This document shows positions 8,390 through 40,600 of a DNA stretch of 64,000 nucleotides, piece by piece (position 1 is the first letter of the stretch; each line of letters opens with the position of its first letter). Position numbers and translations under genes: made by a program. Where the stretch lies: the NCBI RefSeq assembly GCF_016026235.1, contig NZ_CP065613.1, one strand, 5' to 3'. The DNA comes from Escherichia coli. Lineage in GTDB: Bacteria; Pseudomonadota; Gammaproteobacteria; Enterobacterales; Enterobacteriaceae. Below the pieces are notes generated by a model. It did not search any database and was not told the origin of the DNA. It was given only the letters and a program-made list of their open reading frames with translations.

Positions 8390-11300
8390 ATGGCTAACTA
8401 TTTTATTGATCGCCCGGTTTTTGCCTGGGTACTTGCCATTATTATGATGCTTGCAGGTGGTCTGGCGATCATGAACTTACCGGTTGCGCAGTATCCGCAG
8501 ATTGCGCCACCGACCATTACCGTCAGCGCTACCTATCCAGGTGCCGATGCGCAAACGGTAGAAGACTCGGTCACTCAGGTGATTGAGCAAAATATGAATG
8601 GGCTTGATGGCCTGATGTACATGTCTTCAACCAGTGATGCGGCGGGTAATGCCTCTATCACTCTGACCTTCGAGACTGGGACATCTCCTGATATCGCACA
8701 GGTTCAGGTGCAAAATAAACTGCAACTCGCTATGCCTTCATTACCTGAAGCGGTGCAGCAGCAGGGGATTAGCGTTGATAAGTCGAGCAGTAATATTCTG
8801 ATGGTAGCGGCGTTTATTTCTGATAACGGCAGCCTCAACCAGTACGATATCGCGGACTATGTAGCGTCTAATATCAAAGACCCGCTAAGCCGTACCGCGG
8901 GCGTTGGTAGCGTACAGCTCTTTGGTTCCGAGTACGCCATGCGTATCTGGCTGGACCCGCAAAAACTCAATAAATACAATCTGGTACCTTCCGATGTTAT
9001 TTCCCAGATTAAGGTGCAAAACAACCAGATTTCCGGTGGTCAACTGGGTGGCATGCCACAGGCGGCAGACCAGCAACTAAACGCCTCGATCATTGTGCAG
9101 ACGCGTCTGCAAACGCCGGAAGAATTTGGCAAAATCCTGTTGAAAGTTCAGCAAGATGGTTCGCAAGTGCTGCTGCGTGATGTCGCCCGCGTCGAACTTG
9201 GAGCAGAAGATTATTCCACCGTGGCGCGCTATAACGGCAAACCTGCTGCCGGGATCGCCATCAAACTGGCTACCGGAGCAAACGCCCTGGATACCTCGCG
9301 GGCAGTCAAAGAGGAGCTGAACCGCTTATCAGCCTATTTCCCCGCAAGCCTGAAGACGGTTTATCCTTACGACACCACGCCGTTTATCGAAATTTCTATT
9401 CAGGAAGTTTTTAAAACACTGGTTGAGGCTATCATCCTCGTCTTCCTGGTCATGTATCTGTTTTTGCAGAATTTCCGTGCCACAATCATCCCGACGATTG
9501 CCGTACCGGTGGTTATTCTCGGGACGTTTGCGATCTTGTCGGCGGTCGGTTTCACCATCAACACGTTAACTATGTTCGGGATGGTGCTGGCGATAGGGTT
9601 ACTGGTGGATGACGCCATCGTGGTGGTGGAGAACGTCGAGCGTGTCATTGCGGAAGATAAGCTACCACCGAAGGAAGCGACGCATAAATCGATGGGGCAG
9701 ATCCAACGTGCGCTGGTCGGTATTGCTGTTGTTCTTTCCGCAGTGTTTATGCCGATGGCCTTTATGAGCGGCGCAACCGGGGAGATCTACCGCCAGTTCT
9801 CCATCACGCTGATCTCCTCCATGCTGCTTTCAGTATTTGTGGCAATGAGCCTGACCCCTGCCCTGTGCGCCACCATTCTGAAAGCCGCGCCGGAAGGCGG
9901 TCACAAACCTAACGCCCTGTTCGCACGCTTCAACACGCTGTTTGAAAAATCAACTCAGCACTATACCGATAGCACCCGCTCGCTGTTGCGTTGTACCGGT
10001 CGCTACATGGTGGTCTACCTGCTGATTTGCGCCGGGATGGCGGTGCTGTTCCTGCGTACACCGACCTCTTTCTTACCAGAAGAGGATCAGGGGGTATTTA
10101 TGACCACCGCGCAGTTACCTTCCGGTGCCACCATGGTTAACACCACGAAAGTGCTGCAACAGGTGACGGATTATTATCTTACAAAAGAGAAAGATAATGT
10201 TCAGTCGGTGTTTACCGTTGGCGGCTTTGGCTTCAGCGGCCAGGGGCAAAACAACGGCCTGGCGTTTATCAGTCTCAAGCCGTGGTCTGAACGTGTCGGT
10301 GAGGAAAACTCGGTTACCGCGATCATTCAGCGGGCAATGATTGCGTTAAGCAGTATCAATAAAGCCGTCGTCTTCCCGTTCAACTTACCCGCGGTGGCTG
10401 AACTGGGTACCGCGTCAGGTTTTGATATGGAACTGCTGGACAACGGTAACCTGGGGCACGAAAAACTAACCCAGGCACGAAACGAGCTGTTATCACTGGC
10501 AGCGCAATCGCCTGACCAGGTCACCGGGGTACGCCCGAACGGCCTGGAAGATACGCCGATGTTCAAAGTGAACGTCAACGCCGCGAAAGCTGAGGCAATG
10601 GGTGTGGCGCTGTCTGATATCAACCAGACAATTTCCACCGCCTTCGGCAGCAGCTACGTGAACGACTTCCTCAACCAGGGGCGGGTGAAAAAAGTGTATG
10701 TCCAGGCAGGCACGCCGTTCCGTATGTTGCCGGATAACATCAACCAATGGTATGTACGCAACGCCTCTGGCACGATGGCACCGATTTCTGCCTACTCGTC
10801 TACCGAATGGACCTATGGTTCACCGCGATTGGAACGCTACAACGGCATCCCGTCAATGGAGATTTTAGGTGAAGCGGCGGCCGGGAAAAGTACCGGTGAC
10901 GCTATGAAATTTATGGCAGACCTGGTCGCTAAACTTCCGGCAGGCGTCGGCTACTCATGGACCGGACTGTCGTATCAGGAAGCGTTATCCTCAAACCAGG
11001 CTCCTGCACTGTATGCCATTTCACTGGTCGTGGTGTTCCTCGCCCTCGCCGCACTCTATGAGAGCTGGTCAATTCCGTTCTCGGTGATGTTGGTTGTTCC
11101 GTTAGGCGTCGTTGGCGCATTACTGGCCACCGATCTGCGCGGCTTAAGTAATGACGTCTACTTCCAGGTTGGTTTGCTGACCACCATCGGGCTTTCCGCC
11201 AAGAACGCCATCCTGATTGTCGAATTTGCCGTTGAGATGATGCAGAAAGAAGGGAAAACGCCGATAGAGGCAATCATCGAAGCGGCGCGGATGCGTTTAC

Positions 11301-11503
11301 GCCCAATCCTGATGACCTCTCTGGCCTTTATTCTCGGCGTGCTGCCGCTGGTTATCAGTCATGGTGCCGGTTCTGGCGCGCAAAACGCGGTAGGTACCGG
11401 CGTGATGGGCGGGATGTTTGCCGCAACAGTGCTGGCAATTTACTTCGTTCCGGTCTTTTTCGTTGTAGTGGAACATCTCTTTGCCCGCTTTAAAAAAGCG
11501 TAA
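8390..11503 (+). CDS. mdtF: RND multidrug efflux permease MdtF
   Basis: 1037-aa 12-TM AcrB-family ORF; recalled identity. Confidence 0.9.
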
Positions 11504-11513
11504 CGTGTAAATG

Positions 11514-11549
11514 AGAGTAAGGTTGAACGTGAAGGTTCAGCCTTACTCT
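11514..11549 (+). terminator. hairpin terminator after mdtF
   Basis: stem agagtaaggttgaac/gttcagccttactct followed by tttcc, 11 nt past the mdtF stop. Confidence 0.45.
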
Positions 11550-11865
11550 TTCCTGCTAACCATTCACCACTCAACAACCAGCTAACCGTCAGGAATACCA
11601 GGCTTAGTACACAGCACTGAAAGTAGAAACCACTCCAGCCATTCGTCATCAATTTGAACAGCACAATACTGACCCACATTCCCGTAATTGTATGAATTGT
11701 CAGCTTAATAATCCCAAACATGCCGAGTCTTTTCCTCCTGAAAATACCTATACCGCCTGGCAAACTGCGAAAGAGAACTAGCCGGTAGCCCGGCAGAAAT
11801 CATCAGGGAAGAGTTTCACATGAAGCAGGTGTGAGATCCTGACCAATATTCAAATGCAAAATATG

Positions 11866-12594
11866 TCAGGAAAAGGTACCTGGCGAATGTTGCGCAAACT
11901 GATGTGGCGTTACACCATAATATTGTCGAAATGTGTTTATAAAGTACGACGTACTGCTATAGCCACATTTTTCTGCAATAGTATGCAGAGGAATTTGACG
12001 TAACTCGAGTAATCGTCTGGCCATCGACATCCTGGAGGCGAGTAATATTTTACTGAAACAGGTATTTTCATCCTGCAACTTTTTTTTGATGAGACTCTCG
12101 CTGGTATACATTCTTTCCGCGATATCGCGCAGATACCAACGTTTGGCGATATCAAAGCTAATAAGGCGTTCAACTTTTCCTGAAACAGTGCTGATGCTAT
12201 TGAAAAGTAAGGGGATCAGTTCTTTCTTATGAGAAAACATCGATAAACAGGAAAGGTAGAGCATATTGCTCAGTATCGGTGAATTTACCCCGGATTCATT
12301 GAAGCTATCAAAAATCGCCGTCACCAGCGGCATGGGGGGTGACTGGTTAATTAATAGACGGTCTTTGCTATGTAACCCTAAATTGCGTGGTAGCTGACGA
12401 ATATTTTGTAAGTAATGGCAAACTGTCAGCTCATCGATATCCAGTCGTCGCGTATCCGGTGAACAAAACGCAAAATCGTCTGCCAAATTTTTCTCCAGCA
12501 GCACGATACTCTCGTTATGCAGCGATATTTTATGCTGTTCATGATAAATATCGAATGAACGACGAATGAGGATCACCGAGCAGACATGAGTCAT
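11866..12594 (-). CDS. gadW: AraC-family regulator GadW
   Basis: 242-aa ORF with C-terminal AraC HTH; recalled identity. Confidence 0.9.
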   Translation of the reverse strand: MTHVCSVILIRRSFDIYHEQHKISLHNESIVLLEKNLADDFAFCSPDTRRLDIDELTVCHYLQNIRQLPRNLGLHSKDRLLINQSPPMPLVTAIFDSFNESGVNSPILSNMLYLSCLSMFSHKKELIPLLFNSISTVSGKVERLISFDIAKRWYLRDIAERMYTSESLIKKKLQDENTCFSKILLASRMSMARRLLELRQIPLHTIAEKCGYSSTSYFINTFRQYYGVTPHQFAQHSPGTFS

Positions 12595-12839
12595 GATTAT
12601 CCCTTATATTTCATACTGCGATTATTTCAATTTCAGTATACTAATGAAATGTTGCCAGACTGTTTCTTAGCGCAAAAACTGCCAGATTTGGTAGGACCAA
12701 AATTTATCCACAAAGTAGTTTTGCATAACAGTTAATTGATAATAAGTAAATGCAGCACGAATATATTTTCGCACAGCGTATAGCTTATGTTTATAAAAAA
12801 ATGGCTGATCTTATTTCCAGTAAAAGTTATATTTAACTT

Positions 12840-12945
12840 ACTGAGAGCACAAAGTTTCCCGTGCCAACAGGGAGTGTTATAACGGTTTATTAGTCTGGAG
12901 ACGGCAGACTATCCTCTTCCCGGTCCCCTATGCCGGGTTTTTTTT
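12840..12945 (+). ncRNA. gadY: small RNA GadY (cis-antisense to gadX 3' end)
   Basis: sequence ACTGAGAGCACAAAGTTTCCCGTGCC...CCGGTCCCCTATGCCGGGTTTTTTTT recognised from memory of GadY; ends in an intrinsic terminator hairpin plus T8; lies between gadW and gadX on the strand opposite gadX. Confidence 0.8.
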
Positions 12946-12961
12946 ATGTCTGAGTAAAATT

Positions 12962-13786
12962 CTATAATCTTATTCCTTCCGCAGAACGGTCAGTGCCGTA
13001 AAAATTTCCTTGCGCAACAATACTTGCCGCCGAGTCACGGTTCGGCAATCCCTGCGCCGATCGCTCCTGATACTCTGTGGGCGTCATCCCATAATAATTT
13101 CGAAAGACGTAAATGAAATACGACACGCTGTGATATCCACAGGACACTGCGACTCGCTTAATTGAAAAGCCATGTATAACAATAAGTTGCAAAGCACGTT
13201 GCATTCTACACTCAGTAAGCAACTGTGAATATGATGTCTCTTCTTCGCGCAATTTTTTCTTTAACAGGCTTGGACTCATCAACAGCTCGCTGGCGATTCG
13301 GGCTAGTGTCCACTCATGGGCGATATTATTATTGATAACCGTACAAACTCTTGTTCGCATGTTCGGTTGCAAAACGTTCAAAAGCAGCGGTATAAAGTGC
13401 TCATCCTCAAGAAAAACAGATAACAACGCAAAGATTAATGCTCTTTTACGTAGCATTTCTGCATAGCGAAGATTCTTATTCTGCGATAGTTGCGCAACTT
13501 CCTGAAAAACAGGAATATCTCTGCTACAGTGATGAACGAGTAATGAAGAAATTTTTTTATGTGCATGAAGATTTAATGCCTCCTCCTTGAGCATCGGCAG
13601 AAATAATGAAAGCGTATCCCTTGATACTAATACAAAATTTTCAACACACTTATCTACTCGAATTTGGCTTGCATCCGCAAAAACCAGGTCACCGCCATTA
13701 AAATAGCGATATTCACCATTAACCATGGTGAGAATATATTTATGTCTTGCGTACGCAATTAGACAATTCCCATGTAATGATTGCAT
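12962..13786 (-). CDS. gadX: AraC-family regulator GadX
   Basis: 274-aa ORF; recalled identity; adjacent to gadA. Confidence 0.9.
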   Translation of the reverse strand: MQSLHGNCLIAYARHKYILTMVNGEYRYFNGGDLVFADASQIRVDKCVENFVLVSRDTLSLFLPMLKEEALNLHAHKKISSLLVHHCSRDIPVFQEVAQLSQNKNLRYAEMLRKRALIFALLSVFLEDEHFIPLLLNVLQPNMRTRVCTVINNNIAHEWTLARIASELLMSPSLLKKKLREEETSYSQLLTECRMQRALQLIVIHGFSIKRVAVSCGYHSVSYFIYVFRNYYGMTPTEYQERSAQGLPNRDSAASIVAQGNFYGTDRSAEGIRL

Positions 13787-14095
13787 AGTTGACTTAATAT
13801 TACATAAACATATTACTGTTAATTAATGTAGCACGCCGCCCTCTTAAGTCAAATTGATTGATAAATAAATTTAAACGAAGCGGGAGAACAGGATGATAAT
13901 GTGTGATGTTCTACGGGCAGGATGACTGGATTTATAATACAAAAACGTGTTTAAGAACGCAGTGAAATTAATAGCAAGCAAATAATCCCTTTTCGTGACA
14001 TTAAAGGCAATCGCTACATTTAATAAACATTCATATAACATATATCTTATCAACACGATGAATAGACAGCCAATATATTATTGCGATTAATAAGC

Positions 14096-14140
14096 AACCG
14101 AATGCCCAGCTGTTTTTTTAAAGGCTGGGCATTCGGTTTT
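14096..14140 (-). terminator. hairpin terminator downstream of gadA
   Basis: 15-bp stem aaccgaatgcccagc/gctgggcattcggtt with T-runs, within 60 nt of the gadA stop. Confidence 0.5.
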
Positions 14141-14155
14141 TACAACGTTATGTTA

Positions 14156-15556
14156 TCAGGTGTGTTTAAAGCTGTTCTGCTGGGCAATACCCTGCAGTTT
14201 CGGGTGATCGCTGAGATATTTCAGGGAGGCTTTGTAGTCTTCCAGCAACAGTTCAGCAAAGTCCATTTCGAAGCCGCGACGACACATAATGCGCATCACC
14301 ACGATGTCGGTGGCTTCACCGCCGAGAGTGAAGGCCGGAACCTGCCAGCCGCGCAGACGCAGACGTTCAGAGAGGTCGTACAGGGTGTATCCCGGATCTT
14401 CACCATCTTTCAGTTTGAAGCAAACCGCCGGGATGCCTTCGTCCGGGCGACCCGTACAGATGAACTCATACGGCCCCAGTTTGGCGATTTCATCCGCCAG
14501 ATAAGCGGCAACCTGGTAAGAGGCGTTCTGTACTTTGGTGTAGCCTTCACGACCGAGGCGCAGGAATTCATAGTACTGTGCAATTACCTGATCCGCCGGG
14601 CGGGAGAAGTTGATGGCAAAAGTACCAATTTGACCACCCAGGTAGTCAACGTTGAACACCAGTTCCTGCGGCAGCGCTTCTTCGTCACGCCAGATAACCC
14701 AGCCGCAGCCCAGCGGAGCCAGACCGAATTTATGGCCTGAAGCACTGATCGATTTCACACGCGGCAGGCGGAAGTCCCAGACGATATCCGGGGCGACGAA
14801 CGGTGCCAGGAAGCCACCGCTGGCAGCGTCGATGTGCATGTCGATGTCGATACCGGTGTCGGCCTGGAATTTATCCAGCGCATCGTGCAGCGGTTGTGGG
14901 AACTCATAGTTACCGGTGTAGGTCACGCCGAAAGTCGGCACCACGCCGATGGTGTTTTCGTCACAGGCTTCAATCATGCGTTTCGGGTCCATAAACAACT
15001 GACCGGGGCGCATAGGGATCTCACGCAGCTCCACATCCCAGTAGCGGGCGAATTTATGCCAGCAGATTTGTACCGGACCGCACACCAGGTTTGGTTTATC
15101 CGTTGGTTTGCCTGCAGCTTCCATACGCTTGCGCCAACGCCATTTCATCGCCATCCCGCCGAGCATACAGGCCTCGGAAGAACCAATGGTGTTGGTGCCA
15201 ACGGCCTGACCATTTTTCGGCGCAGGCGCATGCCACAGATCGGCAACCATATTTACGCAACGCAGGTCGATGGCTGCGGATTGCGGATATTCTTCTTTGT
15301 CGATCCAGTTTTTATTGATCGACAAATCCATCAATTTATGGACGTTTTCGTCGTCCCAGGTCTGGCAGAAAGTGGCCAGGTTCTGACGAGCGTTGCCATC
15401 AAGATATAATTCATCATTGATAATCTGGAATGCGACATCATCGCGCATTTCGTGCAGCGGAAATCGTTTTGACTCCGCGATAGTAGAAATGGCCTTTGCG
15501 CCAAAACGTGAATCGAGTAGTTCTGAGCGGAAATCCGTTAACAGCTTCTGGTCCAT
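14156..15556 (-). CDS. gadA: glutamate decarboxylase alpha (PLP-dependent)
   Basis: 466-aa ORF from ATG 15556 ([10 protein letters not shown]...); called gadA rather than gadB because it adjoins gadX. Confidence 0.9.
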
Positions 15557-15634
15557 TTCGAACTCCTTAAATTTATTTGAAGGCAATAAAAAGTAGGATT
15601 TATCCGCAATGGAAGCAAGGCATTACAGGCTTAA

Positions 15635-15654
15635 TTTAAATAACAAAATCCTAA
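15635..15654 (-). promoter_or_regulatory. GAD box (GadE/GadX-W binding element) upstream of gadA
   Basis: minus-strand sequence TTAGGATTTTGTTATTTAAA seen, matching the recalled 20-bp GAD box consensus. Confidence 0.7.
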
Positions 15655-15765
15655 GCAGAAAAACGACTTTTTATAATATAAACATTTAACATGATAATAT
15701 TAAAAACAGACTTTATTATCGTAATAAAAATCGCCCAAACATTCCTGTTCGGGCGATCAAATTAA

Positions 15766-17163
15766 TTATTGTTTATCCTGCATATACGGCGTGTACACCC
15801 CGTTCAGACTGTGCAGGAAAGCTACGATATCATCCACATCCTCCTGCGGCAGCTCTTTGCCTACCTGATAGCGCAGCATCAGTTTCACCGCCCCGTCCAG
15901 CGTCGGCACGTCACCGCGATGGAAGTACGGTGCCGTTAAAGCAACGTTACGTAAACCGGGTACTTTCTGACGCAATTTATCACGCTCTTCTTTAGTCACA
16001 TTCATACGACCAATATCCGCCGCCGTAATTTCCCCAAAGTTAAAGTCTTTTTTCAGCCCCAACGGTTCAAAGGAACGTCCACCGAGAATAATACCACCAT
16101 GACAAGTTGCACATTTATTATCTTTAAATAATTGATAGCCTTTTTTCTGTTGCGCCGTCAGCGCATTTTCATCTCCACGCAACCATTTATCAAATGGGGA
16201 ATCCGGCGTAATTAATGTTTTCTCAAATTCAGCAATGGCATCAGTAATATTTTCGCCACTGAAACCTTGCGGATAGACGCCGAGGAACTGCGCTTTAAGC
16301 TGCGGATCTTTTTCCAGCTTAGCAATAATTTCGTCCCAGGATTTCGACGCCATTTCAATCGGGTTCAACGGCGGTCCACCAGCCTGATCCTGCAATGTTG
16401 CCGCACGACCATCCCAGAACTGCTCAACGTTAAATACTGAGTTAAATACCGTCGGCGCGTTAATCGGCCCAACTGCGCCACCAACACCAATCGATGTTTT
16501 TCTGCCATCGACGCCCCCCGCATTCAACGCATGGCAATGAGCGCATGAAATGGTGCTATCAGCCGATAAACGGGGATCGTGATACAGCGCAAAGCCCAAC
16601 GCCACTTTTTGCGCATCGGTAGGCAGTTTTTGCGGGATGGGCTGCACCGGTTCATTGCGATGCTCCGGAGCAGTATCATTGCTGGCGTAATATTCCGCGC
16701 GCTGTTTTGCAATCCAGGCCAGTATTTCCGCCCGCTCTTCATCACTCACCTTACCCGCCCAGTGTAGCGCGGTATAACGCGTTGGTGGCATAGTTTCATA
16801 CTGCATCACCCATTCAATCTTATTCAGATCGCTTTGCGAAACGGGTTTATCAGCCAGCAGTGCCGCACGCACGGCCTCGAGGTTAAAAGATTTATATCCA
16901 AGCTTAATGTCGTAATCCATCAACTGTTTCGCGCCAGGAATATAATAATAGGCGGGTAATTCTGCCGAAGGCGTGTGGCAATAGTCGCATCCTTTTTCGC
17001 GGAGAAAGCCTAAAACCTTATTATTTTCACTGACAGCAGATGCCTGAACATCGGCCTGTTTACTGCGTTTATTATCGTGGTACCACACATAACCAGATAA
17101 CCCTAAATAGCAAATCGCGACGCCAGCCAGGCCGATCGCGGTAATACGTGAGACCATTTTCAT
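15766..17163 (-). CDS. yhjA: di-heme cytochrome c peroxidase YhjA
   Basis: 465-aa ORF with three CxxCH heme motifs visible (CDYCH, CAHCH, CATCH) and N-terminal TM anchor. Confidence 0.85.
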   Translation of the reverse strand: MKMVSRITAIGLAGVAICYLGLSGYVWYHDNKRSKQADVQASAVSENNKVLGFLREKGCDYCHTPSAELPAYYYIPGAKQLMDYDIKLGYKSFNLEAVRAALLADKPVSQSDLNKIEWVMQYETMPPTRYTALHWAGKVSDEERAEILAWIAKQRAEYYASNDTAPEHRNEPVQPIPQKLPTDAQKVALGFALYHDPRLSADSTISCAHCHALNAGGVDGRKTSIGVGGAVGPINAPTVFNSVFNVEQFWDGRAATLQDQAGGPPLNPIEMASKSWDEIIAKLEKDPQLKAQFLGVYPQGFSGENITDAIAEFEKTLITPDSPFDKWLRGDENALTAQQKKGYQLFKDNKCATCHGGIILGGRSFEPLGLKKDFNFGEITAADIGRMNVTKEERDKLRQKVPGLRNVALTAPYFHRGDVPTLDGAVKLMLRYQVGKELPQEDVDDIVAFLHSLNGVYTPYMQDKQ

Positions 17164-17270
17164 TATTCTTCCCTCACGGTGGTGAGTTATTGTGACCCAG
17201 AAAATTTTCCAGAATGCTGCAAACGTCTCTGCGAGACAAAGCCATCATAAAAAACAGTGAGATACGCTTT

Positions 17271-17284
17271 TTGATAGGAATCAA
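17271..17284 (-). promoter_or_regulatory. FNR-type box TTGAT-N4-ATCAA upstream of yhjA
   Basis: perfect TTGATAGGAATCAA palindrome seen about 110 bp upstream of the yhjA start codon; yhjA is known to be FNR-activated. Confidence 0.5.
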
Positions 17285-17537
17285 TCAATTACATGAATAT
17301 AAACTATCAATAAGATAGCCTGTGCCTATTACCCAGATCAGGAATGGCATATCATGATTGCGGCGAGAGCAGGATTGAATGTTCTGAAAATGAAAAACAA
17401 CACGAAATCCGTATTTTTATAAATTCCATGGATATTAGTGCGTTATATTTTTTGACAGGTTAATAAACGTGATCCACCGCACGCTTTGTCGCCCACCAGG
17501 CGGAGCGAATGACTACCCTTAAAGAAAAGCCCGATAA

Positions 17538-19217
<1,680 letters not shown>

Positions 19218-19221
19218 TATT

Positions 19222-19258
19222 TTTACAGCCAGCCGCTAACTTCCTGCTGGCTGTAAAA
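19222..19258. terminator. hairpin between convergent treF and yhjB
   Basis: stem tttacagccagc/gctggctgtaaa seen directly after the treF stop. Confidence 0.45.
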
Positions 19259-19267
19259 TTATCCTCT

Positions 19268-19870
19268 TCAGGAGGAGATATTTAACATCATTGCCGCCTG
19301 GGTGCGATTTTTCACTTCCAGACGGCGATACAGGGATTCCAGATGCGCTTTTACCGTTCCGGTACTGATATTCAGCGCTCTGCCGATCTCCTTATTTGAT
19401 TCGCCCGCCGCTAACATGGTTAAAATCTCCCGCTGGCGGGCGCTTAACGATTTGAGATCTTTAATGTCCTTTTCCGGCGTCGTCCGCCAGTCTCTAGGCA
19501 GAAACATCATCCCCATCGCCGCACTATTTACCGCCAACGCAAATGTCTCGACGGTTGAATCACGAGGCACAATGGCCAGCACATTAAAATGGATAACTTC
19601 CTGTAACCACCGTTTATTGCAATCCGTCGCCGTGATTAACACCTTAACCTCAGGAAACTGCACCACGGTTTTTTGCAGCAACCAGTAGCAAAACTCACCA
19701 TCCTGATCGCCATCGAGCATAACTAAGGCTTCAGGGTAACTTTCCAGCTTTTGCCATAACTCGTCTGCCTGACTGGCCCCCTGAATACTCACTCCTGGAA
19801 TACGCTGCTGTAAACTGATTTTCATTCCATGAATAAATATTGACTGCCTGTCAAACATGACTATTTGCAT
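19268..19870 (-). CDS. yhjB: LuxR-family response-regulator-like protein YhjB
   Basis: 200-aa ORF with C-terminal LuxR HTH; synteny. Confidence 0.8.
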   Translation of the reverse strand: MQIVMFDRQSIFIHGMKISLQQRIPGVSIQGASQADELWQKLESYPEALVMLDGDQDGEFCYWLLQKTVVQFPEVKVLITATDCNKRWLQEVIHFNVLAIVPRDSTVETFALAVNSAAMGMMFLPRDWRTTPEKDIKDLKSLSARQREILTMLAAGESNKEIGRALNISTGTVKAHLESLYRRLEVKNRTQAAMMLNISS

Positions 19871-20389
19871 AACTGAATCTCCACCTGAATACGTTAAAAA
19901 GACTTAAGTAGTGGAAGGGTATTACCCGCGAGAAAAAATAAGAATTCGCCATTTGGCGGTGGCCATTCTACAGAGATGACGCGTAGAAAATAGTTACCGA
20001 TATAAATAGTTACAGCTAAACGCCTGAAATTACATGTCGAGGGCACTATTTAAAACAATTTTGAGGATTTCCTTATATTGGTGGTTAGTACGCATGCAAT
20101 TAAAAATGAAACTCCGCGACCACAAGCAAAAATAACAAACGGCAATGAGACAAAAATAAGCACAAATAGCCAACACGTCCTCTATTCACTTTAAAGGGAA
20201 TCGCTGAAAAATACGCTCTGTTTAGGGGGATTCACCTTTCTCAGAAAGCTATTCCGCCCTTTTCCTGCTGAGAAATCGCCACATTCGTCATGACAACATT
20301 GTGAAACCCGGCATTAGATGTTAGAAAAAACAATAAACAATGCGATATGCGCGTTACTGTTTCGCTGTGAACAACAATCGGTCAAAGAA

Positions 20390-21265
20390 ATGGATAAAAT
20401 TCACGCAATGCAGTTGTTCATCAAAGTCGCGGAGCTGGAAAGTTTTTCCCGCGCGGCGGATTTCTTTGCTTTGCCAAAAGGAAGTGTTTCGCGCCAGATA
20501 CAGGCACTGGAACATCAACTTGGCACCCAGCTTCTCCAGCGCACCACGCGACGGGTCAAACTCACGCCAGAAGGCATGACCTATTATCAACGAGCAAAAG
20601 ATGTGTTGAGTAATCTCAGCGAACTGGACGGTCTGTTTCAACAGGATGCCACCAGTATCAGCGGTAAATTACGCATCGACATCCCGCCAGGAATCGCGAA
20701 AAGCCTGTTACTGCCGCGCCTGTCGGAATTTCTCTATCTGCATCCGGGAATTGAGCTGGAACTGAGTAGCCATGACCGTCCGGTAGATATTCTTCATGAT
20801 GGTTTTGATTGCGTGATACGCACTGGCGCGTTACCGGAAGATGGCGTTATCGCCCGTCCCCTCGGCAAACTGACCATGGTCAACTGTGCCAGTCCGCACT
20901 ATCTGACGCGCTTTGGTTATCCGCAAAGCCCCGATGATCTGACTTCACACGCAATAGTGCGTTATACACCGCACCTGGGTGTACATCCGTTAGGTTTTGA
21001 GGTTGCCAGCGTTAATGGCGTCCAGTGGTTTAAGTCTGGCGGCATGTTGACGGTAAACAGTAGCGAAAACTATCTCGCCGCCGGTCTTGCCGGTCTGGGG
21101 ATTATTCAGATCCCGCGCATTGCCGTGCGCGAAGCCCTGCGTGCCGGGCGGCTTATTGAAGTGTTGCCAGGCTACCGTGCCGAGCCGCTCTCCCTTTCGC
21201 TGGTTTACCCGCAGCGTCGGGAGCTTTCCCGGCGTGTAAACCTGTTTATGCAGTGGCTGGCGTAA
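20390..21265 (+). CDS. yhjC: LysR-family transcriptional regulator YhjC
   Basis: ORF with N-terminal LysR HTH; start placed at ATG 20390 (MDKIHAMQLF...), true start uncertain (track ORF begins at 20318). Confidence 0.75.
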   Translation: MDKIHAMQLFIKVAELESFSRAADFFALPKGSVSRQIQALEHQLGTQLLQRTTRRVKLTPEGMTYYQRAKDVLSNLSELDGLFQQDATSISGKLRIDIPPGIAKSLLLPRLSEFLYLHPGIELELSSHDRPVDILHDGFDCVIRTGALPEDGVIARPLGKLTMVNCASPHYLTRFGYPQSPDDLTSHAIVRYTPHLGVHPLGFEVASVNGVQWFKSGGMLTVNSSENYLAAGLAGLGIIQIPRIAVREALRAGRLIEVLPGYRAEPLSLSLVYPQRRELSRRVNLFMQWLA

Positions 21266-28396: not shown

Positions 28397-29602
28397 ATGC
28401 CATCTTGCAAAAGGATTTTTGCAGCTTCACTTCTTCTGATCGGCCTGGGCTACGGGCTGCATATTTTATTTACCCCCTCACAACCGCTTCGCTTTGATCA
28501 GCAAGTCTATATCTGGCAACGCGTCTGGACGGCAGAACATCACGAGGCACTCAAACGAAGCCGCCCGCTTTTCTCTACGCTGCGCATACTTGGGATGCAA
28601 TTTCATCCGCAAGAAGGCATCCGACACTTTACGGTTAATACTTCACTTATTAAGCAAGATGGTCGCCCGGTCTGGCTGGTCGCGCGACTCGATGGCCAGC
28701 TTACACGGTTTAATAACCAGCAAATTATCCAGCATATTCAACAGACCCTACGTGAGTGGCAAAAGGCAGGTATTACGCTGGCAGGGGTGGAAATTGATTA
28801 TGACGCGCCAACAGCAAAATTGCCGGAATATCTGACACTACTTAGTGCGTTACATCAGGCACTTCCTACAAATATAAAACTTAGCGTTACCGCCCTGCCC
28901 ACCTGGCTTGATTCACCACATCTCGCCCGATTATTGCGCATTGCGGACACTTCGGTTTTACAGGTACATAACGTGCTTTCGCCCGAAAAAGGCCTGTTAG
29001 ATGCCAGTCTGGCGCAGAGTTGGGTAAAGCAATATGCCAGGCAAACCACGCACCCTTTTTTCATCGCATTGCCCGCTTATGGCTCCGCACTCACCAGTGA
29101 TAATCGTGTCGAAAGCGAATCCCCGCTATACGTTGCTGATGAAATGCGAGAACTAAGTGTATCGCCACAAACGATTGCCGAGTTTATTCAATATATAGAA
29201 CAGCAACCACCGCGTGGATTACAGGGGTTGGTATGGTTTCGGCTACCGTTAGCAGGCGATCGCCGCGCCTGGTCACTGACAACACTGGAAGCCGTGATTC
29301 GACATCAACCGCTGACTCCGCGCTGGTCGTTAATAATTACTCAACATACAGACAAGCAACTTTTTGATCTGGCCTTTAAAAACAGCGGCGTAATTGATGC
29401 GCCGTTGCCAAAACAAATAATTCTGCCCAATGCAGATTGTCTATTCGCTGATGGAGCCGGTCACTATCAGGTGCAACCTGGACCATCCAGCCTGAATTTT
29501 GTGAGAGGAAGCGCCAGGCAACTGCGCGCCGGAGAAAGCAGTCCGCTGGGATGGGCGCGCTGTAATCAAAAAATTCAAGGAGAGTTTAATGTTATCCCCT
29601 AG
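28397..29602 (+). CDS. hypothetical exported or membrane-anchored protein (accessory; not at this position in K-12)
   Basis: 401-aa ORF with N-terminal hydrophobic segment (IFAASLLLIGLGYGLHILF); weak SD; 14-nt overlap with next ORF; family not recognised. Confidence 0.6.
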   Translation: MPSCKRIFAASLLLIGLGYGLHILFTPSQPLRFDQQVYIWQRVWTAEHHEALKRSRPLFSTLRILGMQFHPQEGIRHFTVNTSLIKQDGRPVWLVARLDGQLTRFNNQQIIQHIQQTLREWQKAGITLAGVEIDYDAPTAKLPEYLTLLSALHQALPTNIKLSVTALPTWLDSPHLARLLRIADTSVLQVHNVLSPEKGLLDASLAQSWVKQYARQTTHPFFIALPAYGSALTSDNRVESESPLYVADEMRELSVSPQTIAEFIQYIEQQPPRGLQGLVWFRLPLAGDRRAWSLTTLEAVIRHQPLTPRWSLIITQHTDKQLFDLAFKNSGVIDAPLPKQIILPNADCLFADGAGHYQVQPGPSSLNFVRGSARQLRAGESSPLGWARCNQKIQGEFNVIP

Positions 29603-31631
29603 AATATCGCGGCTTTCCGTTATTGTATTTCTCTCACTAATTAGCGCCAACGTTAATGCCTGTGGACCATTTATTCCTAACCATCTGTTAACTGACCGCA
29701 ATAGCGCACTGCTGGAAATGCCAAATGGCAGTTTTGTCTTTGAAGTACAACAGTTGGCTAAACGCGATCCTGGTTTACCAATATGGCATGAAAATACGCC
29801 CGCGGAGGCAACGCAGGAAAATACAGATGATGATGCTGAGCCTCCTGTGCAAAATAGGTCACTGGAAATCGCGCAAAAATTGCAGAAACCATTATCTGAT
29901 GCGCAGTGGCTGTATTATTCAGGAGCTAAGGATTTTCATCAGGGAAAATACGATAGCCCTTACTTTCAGCAATTATTAGCCTTGCCGAAAACAGAGCAAG
30001 GGGAATGGCGTCTTGCTGCGCTATATAGTCTGGCAAGAGGGGGATTTGATGCCACTGACGACAATCTCGATCTGATAATCAATAAAGGCGGCTTTAATCA
30101 GGAAATTGCTGAGCAGGCCATACAACGTTATCAGCAAATCATTGAAGAGGTCCGTAATGGCGTAGCCGATCCTGAGCAGCTCTCTCTCGCCAGTCTCGGT
30201 CAGATTGGGCATTATTATCTGAAAAAAGGTGATGTCGCGGCGGCAGTAAAAATTTATGCCCGGCAAGCGGCCCAGGGTTCGCCCTCCGGGAAAGCTTCGT
30301 TACGAATGATTTCGTTATATCTAACCAGGGAGAAAAATTTACCACTGCTGGAATCGGTTATTGATGATCCACTGGTTCAGCAACTGGTAATCGCAGAGCT
30401 CTTTATTCGTCAAGACTGGGGATATGACAGCGAAGCCTGTACTAAAGACCTTGTAGATTATACCTGTCCAACGCATCGCGACCGTTTAATTAAGTTGCTA
30501 AGTCAACACAGAGTGAAAGGGTTTAGTTATAGCGATCGACTTGCAGCGCTGGCGTATCGGGCAGGAAATTATTCGTTAGCACAAATGCTATTGCAGGATG
30601 CGCCAGAAAGTGGCTTAAGCGAATGGTTAAAAGCAAAACTGGCATTACGAGCCGGAGATATTCCACTGGCAACGCGTCACTATGCTCGCGCAGCCCCGCA
30701 GTTCCCTGCCGATGAAGTCTGGGGAAGTATGGACCCAGAAAGCCCTTATTACCATGCCGATAAAGTTACCGTCCCCTCTTGCCGTATTGCCAGTGAGCAA
30801 GCGATTTTGGCATTAAAACGCGATGATTATCTTCAGGCGACCGCATTGTTTTACCAGGCCAAAGATCTCTATTGGGCCGATTTAGCCTGGGTGGCAGAAA
30901 ACGTTTTGACCTTGTCGGAGTTACAGGCGTTTGTTGAAAAAAACGTACCGGTACCTCAGCACCCTTTAAAACCTGTAGATTTAAACAATAGCAGTTACGG
31001 TTATTATATTTCGCCAGATATCATTCCAACGGATGTTAAATTACGAGCACTATTAGGGAGACGATTAATTCGTCATGGCCAGTACCAGCAGGCCATTAAT
31101 TGGTTTGATATTCCCAATTATCGCCAGGCCGCACAAAAACTGGCTGATTTAATGGCGATAGCAAAAAATAAAAATATCCCTGATAAGCAACGCGCCCAGG
31201 CGCAATATGAAGCTGCGCGGCTTTTGCGTTTCAGTGGTATCGAATTGGTGGCTTATGAAATGTATCCCGATTATGCCATTTCCAGTGGGCAGTATTCAGA
31301 ACCTTTTGAATACAGCAATAACGATTACTGGATAAGTCGTAAAGAAAAACAACGTATTCGCTACGCAATCCCCACCGCTGATGATCATTTTTTGCATTAT
31401 CGCTGGCAGGCTGCGGAATGGGCCGGACAATCTGCCGATTTACTTCACCCTAAAACCCAGGCATGGGCTGCCGTGTTATGCCATGCTGCAAGTTGGGTCA
31501 GATATCCTGATCCAGAAACCGGTGCATTAATTTATCAACGCTACGTAAAAAACGGTAAAGCTTTTGACTGGGCTGCGCATTTTGGTCGTGATTGTCCAGA
31601 ACCAGTGTTTAAGAAGGATCTGAAGAAATAA
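29589..31631 (+). CDS. hypothetical secreted protein or lipoprotein with helical repeat-like regions (accessory)
   Basis: 680-aa ORF, AGGAG SD 8 nt upstream, signal peptide ending ...LISANVNA-C; family not recognised. Confidence 0.6.
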   Translation: MLSPRISRLSVIVFLSLISANVNACGPFIPNHLLTDRNSALLEMPNGSFVFEVQQLAKRDPGLPIWHENTPAEATQENTDDDAEPPVQNRSLEIAQKLQKPLSDAQWLYYSGAKDFHQGKYDSPYFQQLLALPKTEQGEWRLAALYSLARGGFDATDDNLDLIINKGGFNQEIAEQAIQRYQQIIEEVRNGVADPEQLSLASLGQIGHYYLKKGDVAAAVKIYARQAAQGSPSGKASLRMISLYLTREKNLPLLESVIDDPLVQQLVIAELFIRQDWGYDSEACTKDLVDYTCPTHRDRLIKLLSQHRVKGFSYSDRLAALAYRAGNYSLAQMLLQDAPESGLSEWLKAKLALRAGDIPLATRHYARAAPQFPADEVWGSMDPESPYYHADKVTVPSCRIASEQAILALKRDDYLQATALFYQAKDLYWADLAWVAENVLTLSELQAFVEKNVPVPQHPLKPVDLNNSSYGYYISPDIIPTDVKLRALLGRRLIRHGQYQQAINWFDIPNYRQAAQKLADLMAIAKNKNIPDKQRAQAQYEAARLLRFSGIELVAYEMYPDYAISSGQYSEPFEYSNNDYWISRKEKQRIRYAIPTADDHFLHYRWQAAEWAGQSADLLHPKTQAWAAVLCHAASWVRYPDPETGALIYQRYVKNGKAFDWAAHFGRDCPEPVFKKDLKK

Positions 31632-32139
31632 CCTTGCAGAAGTGAGAAGGGCTACCCTTACGGACTGGTGAAAACTGCTGACGCATATCATTCAAACTAC
31701 GCGTAAATTTAAGCGGATTCTCGCCTTTGATTTCGACTGTGACGAAAATATCGCCATTGTTGTTAAAAAAGTTAAAATAATAGTCATGCTGGTGTCGACG
31801 GTTAGTTTTAAATTGACGAAATGACAAATAGCACCGTTCGTCATAGGTAATCAAAAAATCATTTTCCCCGTACCCATTTACCATCTTGTTTTTTAAGTTA
31901 CCCTCGAAGAGAACAGAATACTTATCTCTGTCAGCAAATAATTCGGCATCCGTTTCTCGGTTGATCGTGTTTACACTAACACCAAATTCTATTTTTATTT
32001 TTTCTTTACTGATACTGTCTTTTGTATCGACATAAATGTTATTCTCATTCCAGAATAAGAGGAAGTTTTTGTTACAGGAGTAGAGGCCAGTTAAGCAGAG
32101 TACGATTATTAGCAAGAATAGTATGGCTTTGTAGCGCAT
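31609..32139 (-). CDS. hypothetical small exported protein or lipoprotein, AT-rich (accessory)
   Basis: 176-aa ORF with signal peptide (ILFLLIIVLCLTGLYSC), AAGGAA SD upstream; noticeably lower GC than flanks by eye; 3' end overlaps the convergent 680-aa ORF by 23 nt. Confidence 0.5.
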   Translation of the reverse strand: MRYKAILFLLIIVLCLTGLYSCNKNFLLFWNENNIYVDTKDSISKEKIKIEFGVSVNTINRETDAELFADRDKYSVLFEGNLKNKMVNGYGENDFLITYDERCYLSFRQFKTNRRHQHDYYFNFFNNNGDIFVTVEIKGENPLKFTRSLNDMRQQFSPVRKGSPSHFCKVISSDPS

Positions 32140-37614: not shown

Positions 37615-40600
37615 TTACCAGTCGGCGTAAGGTATCAGCGGCTGCGGCGGTAAATCCATGTCACCCTGCCATCCGGCGGCGGAATAACGTACGTAGAGCA
37701 GGAAATGGCTGGGTGCGTAATCTTTCGCCTGCTGGATATCAATTGCCGTGCCAACAAACCAGTTGGAAGTAACACGTCGTTCAAGTAATGCCCGCGCCGT
37801 GTAGCCGAAGCCCTGACTGCTGCCGCCATCGTTGGATTGCCGCGCAGCTTCTTCCTGCCAGTCGGTCGGGATCAGATTCATCAGCGGATAACGCGGCATG
37901 GTTTTGGTGCGTGAATGCGACCACGAGCCAGACGCCCCCAACTCCCACGACCAGTTTTCCGTGCGCTCCCGCCACATCACCGGTATGGCAAACGACAGGT
38001 ATTCCTGCGGACTGTAGTAACCGCCCTGACCGAGTGAGTAGCCACTCAGATCTTTGTCGTAATGCCAGATCATGTTGTTCAGGCCGATTGTGACGCGGCG
38101 ATTGTTCTGGTTAATGACCTTATAGTAATAGCCCGTCATCCAGCGCACGCGCCAGTTATCTTCGACATTTTTACCGGTTAACTGGTCGCCACTAAGCGAT
38201 GCCCAGACGCCGTTTGCTTCACCTTTATCGTAGCTCAGACTTAGCCCCACACCGTCGGCACGTACGCCACCCCATTTTTTCCCGGTATTGCTCGGGGAGT
38301 CTTTTTGCCCACCAAAGGCCAGCAAAGAACTGGAGATGGGCCGACGGTGGGCGTTAACGGTGTAACCCAGCGGCCCGATATCATCGCTGTAACTGATGCC
38401 GCCGACCACATCCACCACGTTGAAGCCCATCGGCGTGGTACCGATATCCCAGCTCCAGACGTCATTTCGCCAGCCGACCGCCACGCTGGCACCGGAATCC
38501 GACTGGCTGCGGTTGCCGCTACAGTCCTGTAATGTACAGGTGCCCCAGTTATCATCCCATTTACCATCGGCATTAGTGGAGAAACTGCCGACGTTCATAT
38601 TGACGAAATCACTGCGAAAGAACATCCGCCCGTCAGAATACGGCGCATCCACCTGCAACATGGTAGTGTGCGCTTTCAGATCGGAGTAACCACCGGTGCC
38701 GCTCGAACCCCAGTAATCATGCTCGAGGGTGACGTTAAGATCCTGCTGGCGATAGAGGTCCGCCGCATCGCTGCGCACGCCGCGTTTCAGCCAGTCATCT
38801 TTCTCGTCGTTACGGGTCAGTCGGGTAAAGGTGTCGTTATCCTGCGGACGCGTCGTGGTCACACCGGATGCGACCATGGCGTCTTTGTAGGTTTCCAGCG
38901 CCTGCTTTGGATCGCCCGCCTGCGCTTCAAACTTCGCACCATCACGCAGTACCATCGCACTTTCCATCGACGGCGGCTGAGATTTTGCCTGCGGGATCAA
39001 CTTATTAAACGTCTGCTGCGCCGCTGCGGTATCGCCAAGCTGCGCCTGCGCCAGCGCCACGCGCCGCTGTGTGTTCAGCGAGGCGTTATCGGTAGCGGGC
39101 AGTTTCGCCAGCTGGCTACGTGCCGCAGCTGTGTCACCGGCAGCAATATCCACTTCCGTCAGCCCCAGAATGGCATCGGCGTTAGTTGGCTCCCGCGTCA
39201 GGACATTCTGATACGCAGCGCGGGCGGCGGTGTAATCACGTCGCTGCTGCGCCCAGTCAGCCAGCGTGAGGTCAATACGCGTGGAAGGTGGTTGCTGGCG
39301 CAGCATCGCTTCCGCTTCTGCCTCTTTGCCGCTTTCTCGCAGGCGGTTAGCGGTTTCCAGCACCTGATCGCTTTGCAGTCGATTAACCAGCTCCTGAATA
39401 TTGCTGTTCCACTGCGCACGCGGCAGGCTGTTGATATGCGCCAGCGCCGCTCTGTCCTGGTCATGACCAGAGAGGTACAGCCCGTAAGCGTAAACCTGCT
39501 CCGGGTCGTTCGACTTCTGCTGCGCCAGATTGCGCATTAACGTATCGGCCTGGCTGCGTTGTCCGGCCTGCCAGAGATCCTGCGAAAGTCGGTAAGTAAT
39601 CCATACGCTGCCGGGGTCCAGCGCCAGTCGTTGCCGCTGAAGTGCTGCCGCCTGCGCCCATTTGCCCTGGTTTTCCAGTGCCTCTGCCTGCTGTGCCAGA
39701 CGGTCGTTTTGCAGGCTGCGTTCGATATCATCAATGCTACGCCGCTGACTGGCAGAGAGCGAGGCGATAAACGCTTCAGCTTTTTCTGGCGATTGCTGGC
39801 GGTAAATATTTGCCAGCCCGCGCACGGCGTTAGTGTTGCCGCTGTCCATACGCAAGGTCTGCTGATAATAACGTTCGGCGGCGGGATAATCTTTTCGCGC
39901 CATCGCCACATCGCCCAGCCCCAGCACTGCATAACTGTCGGTGTTATCGACATTACGCGCCTGCTGGAACAGGCGTTCTGCCCGGTCAGGATTATTGGCT
40001 TTCAGCGCAGCATCGCCCTGCTGGATCGCCAGCCAGTAGCGGTTTACTTTCAGCAGACTGTTCCATTTGTCGTTGTTGCTGCTGTGCGGGTCCAGTGCGA
40101 GGGCTTTTTCCAGATTCGCCACTGCATTGGCGCGATCGCCTTTCTGAGAATACGCCTGGCCCAGCGCCCCCAGAGCTTCACTGTCTTTCGGGTTCGCCCG
40201 CACCGCCTGTTGTAGTTCGGGAATGGCTTTACCCGCCATACCAGAGTCCACCGCCGCTAAACCTTGCGCACGAGCGCGGAAAGCAGGATCGGCCAGCTGT
40301 TTTTGCTGTTCTGCCAGTTGCGATTGCGCAGCCGCCACGCTATCGCCATCACTAAAGATCGAGAGATATTTTTTCAGCGCCGACACACTGGCATCACTGA
40401 CGGGCATGTCTTTAATCTGCCCGTACCAGATTTTAGAGGCCCCTTCGCGCCCGGCGTTCGATTTTGCCATCTGTTCCAGGACGGCAAAACCTTCGTCACG
40501 GCGATCGCTACTAAACAGCAATAGCGCCAGATTGTTTTGCAGGCCCGTATTGCCCGGTGCATCCGCATTGATGCGTTTTAACTGATTAATCGCTTCGCCA

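Follow-up and report, generated by a model that had tools for sequence, protein, structure and literature searches.

The 20-bp sequence TTAGGATTTTGTTATTTAAA, located at positions 15635-15654 on the minus strand of the Escherichia coli DNA analysed here (a stretch of 64 kb, hereafter the window), is very probably the GAD box of the gadA promoter, where it would act as an RcsB/GadE activator site. In plus-strand letters the site reads TTTAAATAACAAAATCCTAA. The GAD box of gadA is an already known element, here an ordinary representative of an already described class, found where it is expected. No observation spoke against this identification. The original prediction of a canonical GAD box upstream of gadA, present as an exact 20-mer on the gadA strand, was borne out in sequence, strand, gene and spacing.

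The box and the gadA promoter around it

A search of both strands of the window, with up to three mismatches allowed, returned a single site for TTAGGATTTTGTTATTTAAA, which contained no mismatches, against a chance expectation of 0.01 per window. The site lies 79-98 nt upstream of the gadA start codon (ATG, 15556, minus strand), and box and glutamate decarboxylase gene share one strand. An alignment revealed 20/20 identity with both the gadA and the gadB promoters of K-12; the conserved G in the left half of the box, which is the target of the M1 mutation discussed below, is retained. Downstream of the box, a gap of 16 bp (TTAAGCCTGTAATGCC) leads to the -35 hexamer TTGCTT. Castanie-Cornet et al. 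(2010, PMC2887963) likewise put the box 16 bp ahead of the -35 element, and its centre 63 bp before the start of transcription.

Less stringent scans of the window were also carried out. A degenerate GAD-box scan (up to six mismatches) gave eight matches against 4.9 in shuffled sequences, which is the level of chance. Similarly, the GadE motif obtained by ChIP-exo, TTARGAWWWWAAATA, as printed in PMC4918353, gave four matches in the window with up to two mismatches against 2.9 expected, and none of them is the GAD box. The motif string as printed is unusable as a scanner.

Because the gadA and gadB promoters have the same box and the region is AT-rich, two other origins of the site were considered, namely the GAD box of gadBC and a chance resemblance in AT-rich sequence. 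The gene that follows the box (14156-15556, minus strand) is intact, encodes 466 amino acids, is 99.8% identical to K-12 gadA and matches GadA of PDB entry 1XEY with 1102 bits. Because its flanks are gadX and ccp, as in K-12 MG1655, this gene is gadA and not gadB, which in K-12 stands beside gadC and pqqL. The sequence flanking the box also fits gadA and not gadB, and a gadB identity was rejected on synteny and flanking sequence together. These two observations, taken with a chance expectation of only 0.01 even when three mismatches are allowed, refute a gadBC or chance origin of the site, to which we attach practically no probability.

The position of the transcription start was calibrated from K-12. 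Primers gadA-176 (GATCGCCCGAACAGCAA) and gadA+77 (CGTGAATCGAGTAGTTC) (PMC3050690) were placed on the K-12 alignment, and each of them is consistent with transcription beginning 27 nt before the ATG. Counted from this start, the K-12 GAD box occupies -72 to -53, which agrees with its published location. The equivalent position in the window is the C at 15583 (minus strand), also 27 nt upstream of the ATG. With this K-12-derived start, the centre of the box in the window would be at -61.5 if transcription begins at the same C, and at -62.5 if the start tracks the -10 hexamer.

The core promoter hexamers, on the minus strand like the gene, were assigned from the spacing statements of PMC2887963. 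The predicted -35 hexamer TTGCTT (15613-15618), which is kept in K-12 gadB, is followed by a spacer of 17 nt (CCATTGCGGATAAATCC), a predicted -10 hexamer TACTTT (15590-15595), placed by spacing rules and the published start, and the discriminator TTATTG (15584-15589). An RcsB box, GGATAAATCCTA, identical to that of K-12, abuts or overlaps the -10 hexamer on the same strand at approximately 15594-15605, the limits of the box being estimates. PMC2887963 places the RcsB box directly upstream of the -10 element, describes it as a low-affinity RcsB homodimer site implicated in repression, and gives gadB a C for the G at its left end; this substitution is visible in the K-12 gadB alignment. Further downstream, the 27-nt leader contains the Shine-Dalgarno sequence AAGGAG of gadA (15563-15568, minus strand), identical to K-12. 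The upstream limit of the regulatory region is set by the intrinsic terminator of ccp (15729-15758, minus strand), a 13-bp stem followed by a T-run. A generic sigma-70 scan listed only AT-rich chance sites and missed the gadA core promoter because of its weak -10 match.

Alignment with the K-12 gadA promoter, one of the checks that had been suggested along with the prediction, showed an identical box in a gadA-ccp spacer of 209 bp in the window and 210 bp in K-12 MG1655, with two differences only. One is a SNP in the ccp terminator loop, at 15744; the other is the loss of one T from the run that follows the TAC of the -10 hexamer, which is T5 in the window (15588-15592, minus strand) and T6 in K-12. 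Both leave the GAD box, the two core hexamers and the RcsB box untouched, and the leader is identical too. The box of the window therefore has the sequence (20/20), strand and downstream gene of the K-12 gadA GAD box (Castanie-Cornet and Foster, 2001; Ma et al., 2003; Castanie-Cornet et al., 2010, PMC2887963), and the two promoters share the 16-bp gap, the 17-bp spacer, the -10, the RcsB box and the 27-nt leader, differing in the T-run and in one base of the terminator loop. A K-12 91-mer reaching from the box through the leader has an exact match in 4,532 of the 5,426 complete E. coli genomes, and nearly all others are at least 95% identical.

In the K-12 gadBC promoter, the 20-mer, the -35 hexamer TTGCTT and the block GATAAATCCTACTTTTTTA are the same as in the window, whereas the two promoters diverge in the leader, upstream of the box and between box and -35. 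The retention of such elements in gadA and gadB while the intervening sequence diverges is the pattern expected of functional modules.

Probable RcsB/GadE binding at the box and a putative GadX/GadW motif nearby

According to PMC2887963, the GAD box is bound by an RcsB/GadE heterodimer, and GadE alone is stated there not to bind. The footprint of RcsB with GadE in K-12 covers -50 to -76, and the M1 point mutation of the conserved G led to a loss of both complex formation and activation by GadE in vivo (PMC2887963). A second study names the 20-mer as a previously characterised asymmetric GadE-binding site (PMC4918353). In K-12, the core gad genes are activated more than 50-fold by GadE and less than 2-fold by GadX.

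It could nevertheless be proposed that the GAD box is primarily a GadX/GadW site, whose presence would report AraC-type control of gadA. The DNase I footprints of GadX and GadW obtained by Tramonti and colleagues in 2002 and 2006 are said to cover much of the upstream region. In addition, binding of GadX to gadA promoter fragments that extend from -176 to +77 has been described (PMC3050690). However, the GadW/GadX motif, AtGtcTGATtTttatattat (the consensus of Tramonti et al., 2008, as quoted in PMC4918353), is unlike the 20-mer, and the GAD-box 20-mer did not match this consensus when tested against it. A search of the window with AtGtcTGATtTttatattat and up to three mismatches gave two matches against 0.00 expected, at 15694-15713 and 4811-4830. 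The first of these, AAGTCTGTTTTTAATATTAT (minus strand), agrees with the published consensus at 17 of 20 positions, is identical in K-12 and is a putative GadX/GadW site. It is the sole match in the gadA promoter, lies 40 bp upstream of the GAD box and does not overlap it. Similarly, the published model of gadA draws the GadXW box apart from the GAD box (PMC2887963). With the loss of GadE activation in the box mutant and the small effect of GadX compared with that of GadE also standing against it, the proposal that GadX and GadW are the principal ligands of the box is improbable, and the RcsB/GadE heterodimer is retained as the likely one. The two elements are alike in being AT-rich upstream activator elements of the same promoter region, and differ in their sequence and in the family of the protein bound, which for the GadX/GadW motif is AraC/XylS.

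The prediction had further taken the exact 20-mer as an indication that control by GadE, GadX and GadW is intact. This reading was partly supported: it was right about the identity of the box, but the joint attribution to GadE, GadX and GadW was imprecise, as GadX and GadW have a separate motif, and RcsB was omitted. Since GadE acts at the GAD box as a heterodimer with RcsB, intact control also needs rcsB, which, like rpoS and hns, lies outside the 64-kb window.

Acid fitness island and neighbouring genes

Judged by its sequence, the window represents the E. coli acid fitness island. A megablast search with 13500-17500 found matches in 5,425 of 5,426 complete E. coli genomes, with gadX, gadA and ccp as annotated features. 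The genes of K-12 MG1655 map to the window without gaps, and the order gadW-gadY-gadX-gadA-ccp-treF is as in K-12. By this mapping the island comprises yhiD (3231-3878, minus strand), hdeB (3942-4268, minus), hdeA (4384-4716, minus), hdeD (4971-5543, plus), arrS (5961-6030, minus), gadE (6342-6869, plus), gadF (ES205; 6969-7058, plus), which was also found in an RNA-family search, mdtE (7208-8365, plus) and mdtF (8390-11503, plus), and, on the far side of gadA, ccp/yhjA (15766-17163, minus), treF (17568-19217, plus) and yhjB (19268-19870, minus). All reading frames of the island are intact.

The regulators of gadA encoded here are close to those of K-12. The gene for GadE, the LuxR-type activator acting at the GAD box with RcsB, is 99.8% identical to K-12 at the nucleotide level without gaps, and the protein is identical. 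The AraC-type regulator GadW (11866-12594, minus strand) is full length at 242 amino acids, with Q21H and L31V relative to K-12. GadX, also AraC-type and encoded downstream of gadA (12962-13786, minus strand), has its full length of 274 amino acids and differs from K-12 by F53L, V79I, R246G and S248P. The small RNA gadY, between them at 12837-12950 on the plus strand by its Rfam match (RF00122, 150 bits) and at 12840-12945 by the mapping of the K-12 gene, is 100% identical to K-12 gadY. The wider claim of intact control is thus favoured by a promoter close to that of K-12 and by intact gadE, gadW, gadX and gadY, but a single 20-mer cannot carry it.

The spacer between hdeA and hdeD contains the second match to the GadX/GadW consensus (4811-4830, minus strand, three mismatches) and a degenerate GAD-box-like 20-mer, TTAGGAAATTTTTATTAAAT (4875-4894, plus strand, five mismatches), the number of such degenerate matches being at chance level. 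Both would fit the known control of hdeAB and hdeD by GadE and GadX.

The closest genome is that of FDAARGOS_943, with 99.9% identity over 24 kb. Positions 1-19899 of the window differ from it by 13 SNPs and one indel, and 13 of these 14 changes fall within 3226-19976 and were polarised with K-12. Eight are derived in FDAARGOS_943, six of them G:C to A:T. The five derived in the window are mdtE V172A, a synonymous change in mdtF, gadA G322D, the deletion in the gadA promoter and yhjB G126R. Near the 3' end of rcdB/yhjC, at 21253 (reading frame end 21265), one TGGC is missing from the (TGGC)3 present in K-12 and FDAARGOS_943; the resulting frameshift makes RcdB end in ...LFMQWLA*, eight residues short of the 299-amino-acid K-12 protein.

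Several further features lie outside the gad genes. The first part of the window (1-3230) carries haem-uptake genes, namely hutX (254-748), chuY (748-1371), chuU (1420-2412) and an ATPase gene ending at about 3179. These adjoin yhiD directly, and slp and dctR, which stand next to yhiD in K-12, are therefore absent from the window. Between kdgK and yhjJ, at approximately 28397-32139, there are three extra genes for a DUF3142 protein, a TPR protein and a hypothetical protein, which are annotated in FDAARGOS_943 but have no counterpart in the FAM21845 layout. Three tandem rdlD antitoxin RNAs at 52051-53082 match three Ldr toxin genes annotated in FDAARGOS_943. Towards the end of the window, naRNA4 is found at 60999-61080 and a tRNA at 61176-61249. 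In the closest genome (NZ_CP065615.1, 4139744-4142128) an IS1 insertion splits dppA; the window appears to lack this IS1 in dppA (about 59-61 kb), because the tRNA is about 771 bp closer than predicted from the closest genome.

Proposed working of the promoter and changes in the window lineage

The GAD box would function as a class-I-type upstream activator site with its centre approximately 62-63 bp before the first transcribed base. Acid or stationary-phase signals would raise GadE, and the GadE/RcsB heterodimer formed would occupy the box and stimulate RNA polymerase at the core promoter, which is weak (TTGCTT-17-TACTTT), giving a gadA(-gadX) transcript with a leader of 27 nt before the ATG. 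The separate AT-rich motif further upstream would serve GadX and GadW, and high levels of RcsB may lead to repression via the second box adjoining the -10. The identity of the proteins at the box and the consequences of their binding are drawn from the literature on K-12, and the same events may be expected in this strain. The analysis itself showed the sequence identity to K-12, which gene lies downstream, how the box is spaced from the core promoter, and that gadE, gadW, gadX and gadY are intact.

Two changes in this region, the T5 deletion and GadA G322D, went unmentioned in the original prediction and are the only mildly unusual features of the gadA locus. The T5 allele is rare. A window 90-mer carrying it has an exact match in only 4 of the 5,426 complete genomes (JML285, BY63, BY68 and APEC 102026), and T6 is kept in K-12 gadA, in K-12 gadB and in the closest genome. 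With T6 both in FDAARGOS_943 and in K-12 as outgroup, the deletion is derived in the window lineage. It falls between the -10 hexamer and the start site and leaves the geometry of box, -35 and -10 unchanged, while the C at which transcription starts in K-12 moves from the eighth to the seventh base after the hexamer. A distance of 7 nt from -10 to start is more typical than 8. By shortening this distance by one base, the deletion could alter promoter strength or the choice of start slightly; little or no effect on regulation is expected, with possibly a one-base shift of the start. The difference could also be a single-base sequencing error at the T-run. In a base-by-base comparison with FDAARGOS_943, which covers the window to position 39795, 26 SNPs and just two indels were found over 40 kb, and general assembly noise in homopolymers is therefore unlikely.

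GadA itself carries a single substitution relative to K-12, G322D, in which codon 322 (14591-14593) has changed from GGC to GAC through a C to T change at 14592 on the plus strand. This change, too, is derived in the window lineage. No exact match to a 90-mer around the codon was found in the gadA or gadB genes of the 5,426 complete E. coli genomes. In solved homologues only the small residues G, S or A occupy this position, which is at the start of a helix. Aspartate at a helix start is often tolerated.

Taken together, these changes bear on whether the box may be intact while the output of gadA is altered by the T5 deletion, by G322D or by both, in which case describing the control as intact would be misleading. 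The rarity of T5 compared with T6, the retention of T6 in gadB and in the closest genome, the absence of the G322D codon from the complete genomes, the restriction of homologues to small residues and the low number of indels, which speaks against an error-prone assembly, are all in its favour. Against it, box, -35, spacer and -10 are untouched by the deletion, the start C comes to lie at the more usual 7 nt, so that a large loss of activity would not be anticipated, the homopolymer difference may be a sequencing error, and the substitution is at a helix start, where aspartate is often accepted. We consider an altered output unlikely, though slightly less so than GadX/GadW as the principal ligands of the box, and prefer the view that the T5 deletion would leave regulation essentially unchanged. 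There is a similarly small chance that the two derived changes are the signature of a lineage whose gadA, behind an intact box, has had its expression or activity retuned or is losing it. If this were true, the integrity of the box would be no guide to whether acid resistance is intact as well.

The confirmation that the window has the standard gadA regulatory region is useful as annotation and nothing more. An exact operator match shows the presence of one cis-element only; for the circuit to be intact, the partner protein RcsB, the separate GadX/GadW sites, the core promoter and the GadA enzyme matter as well.
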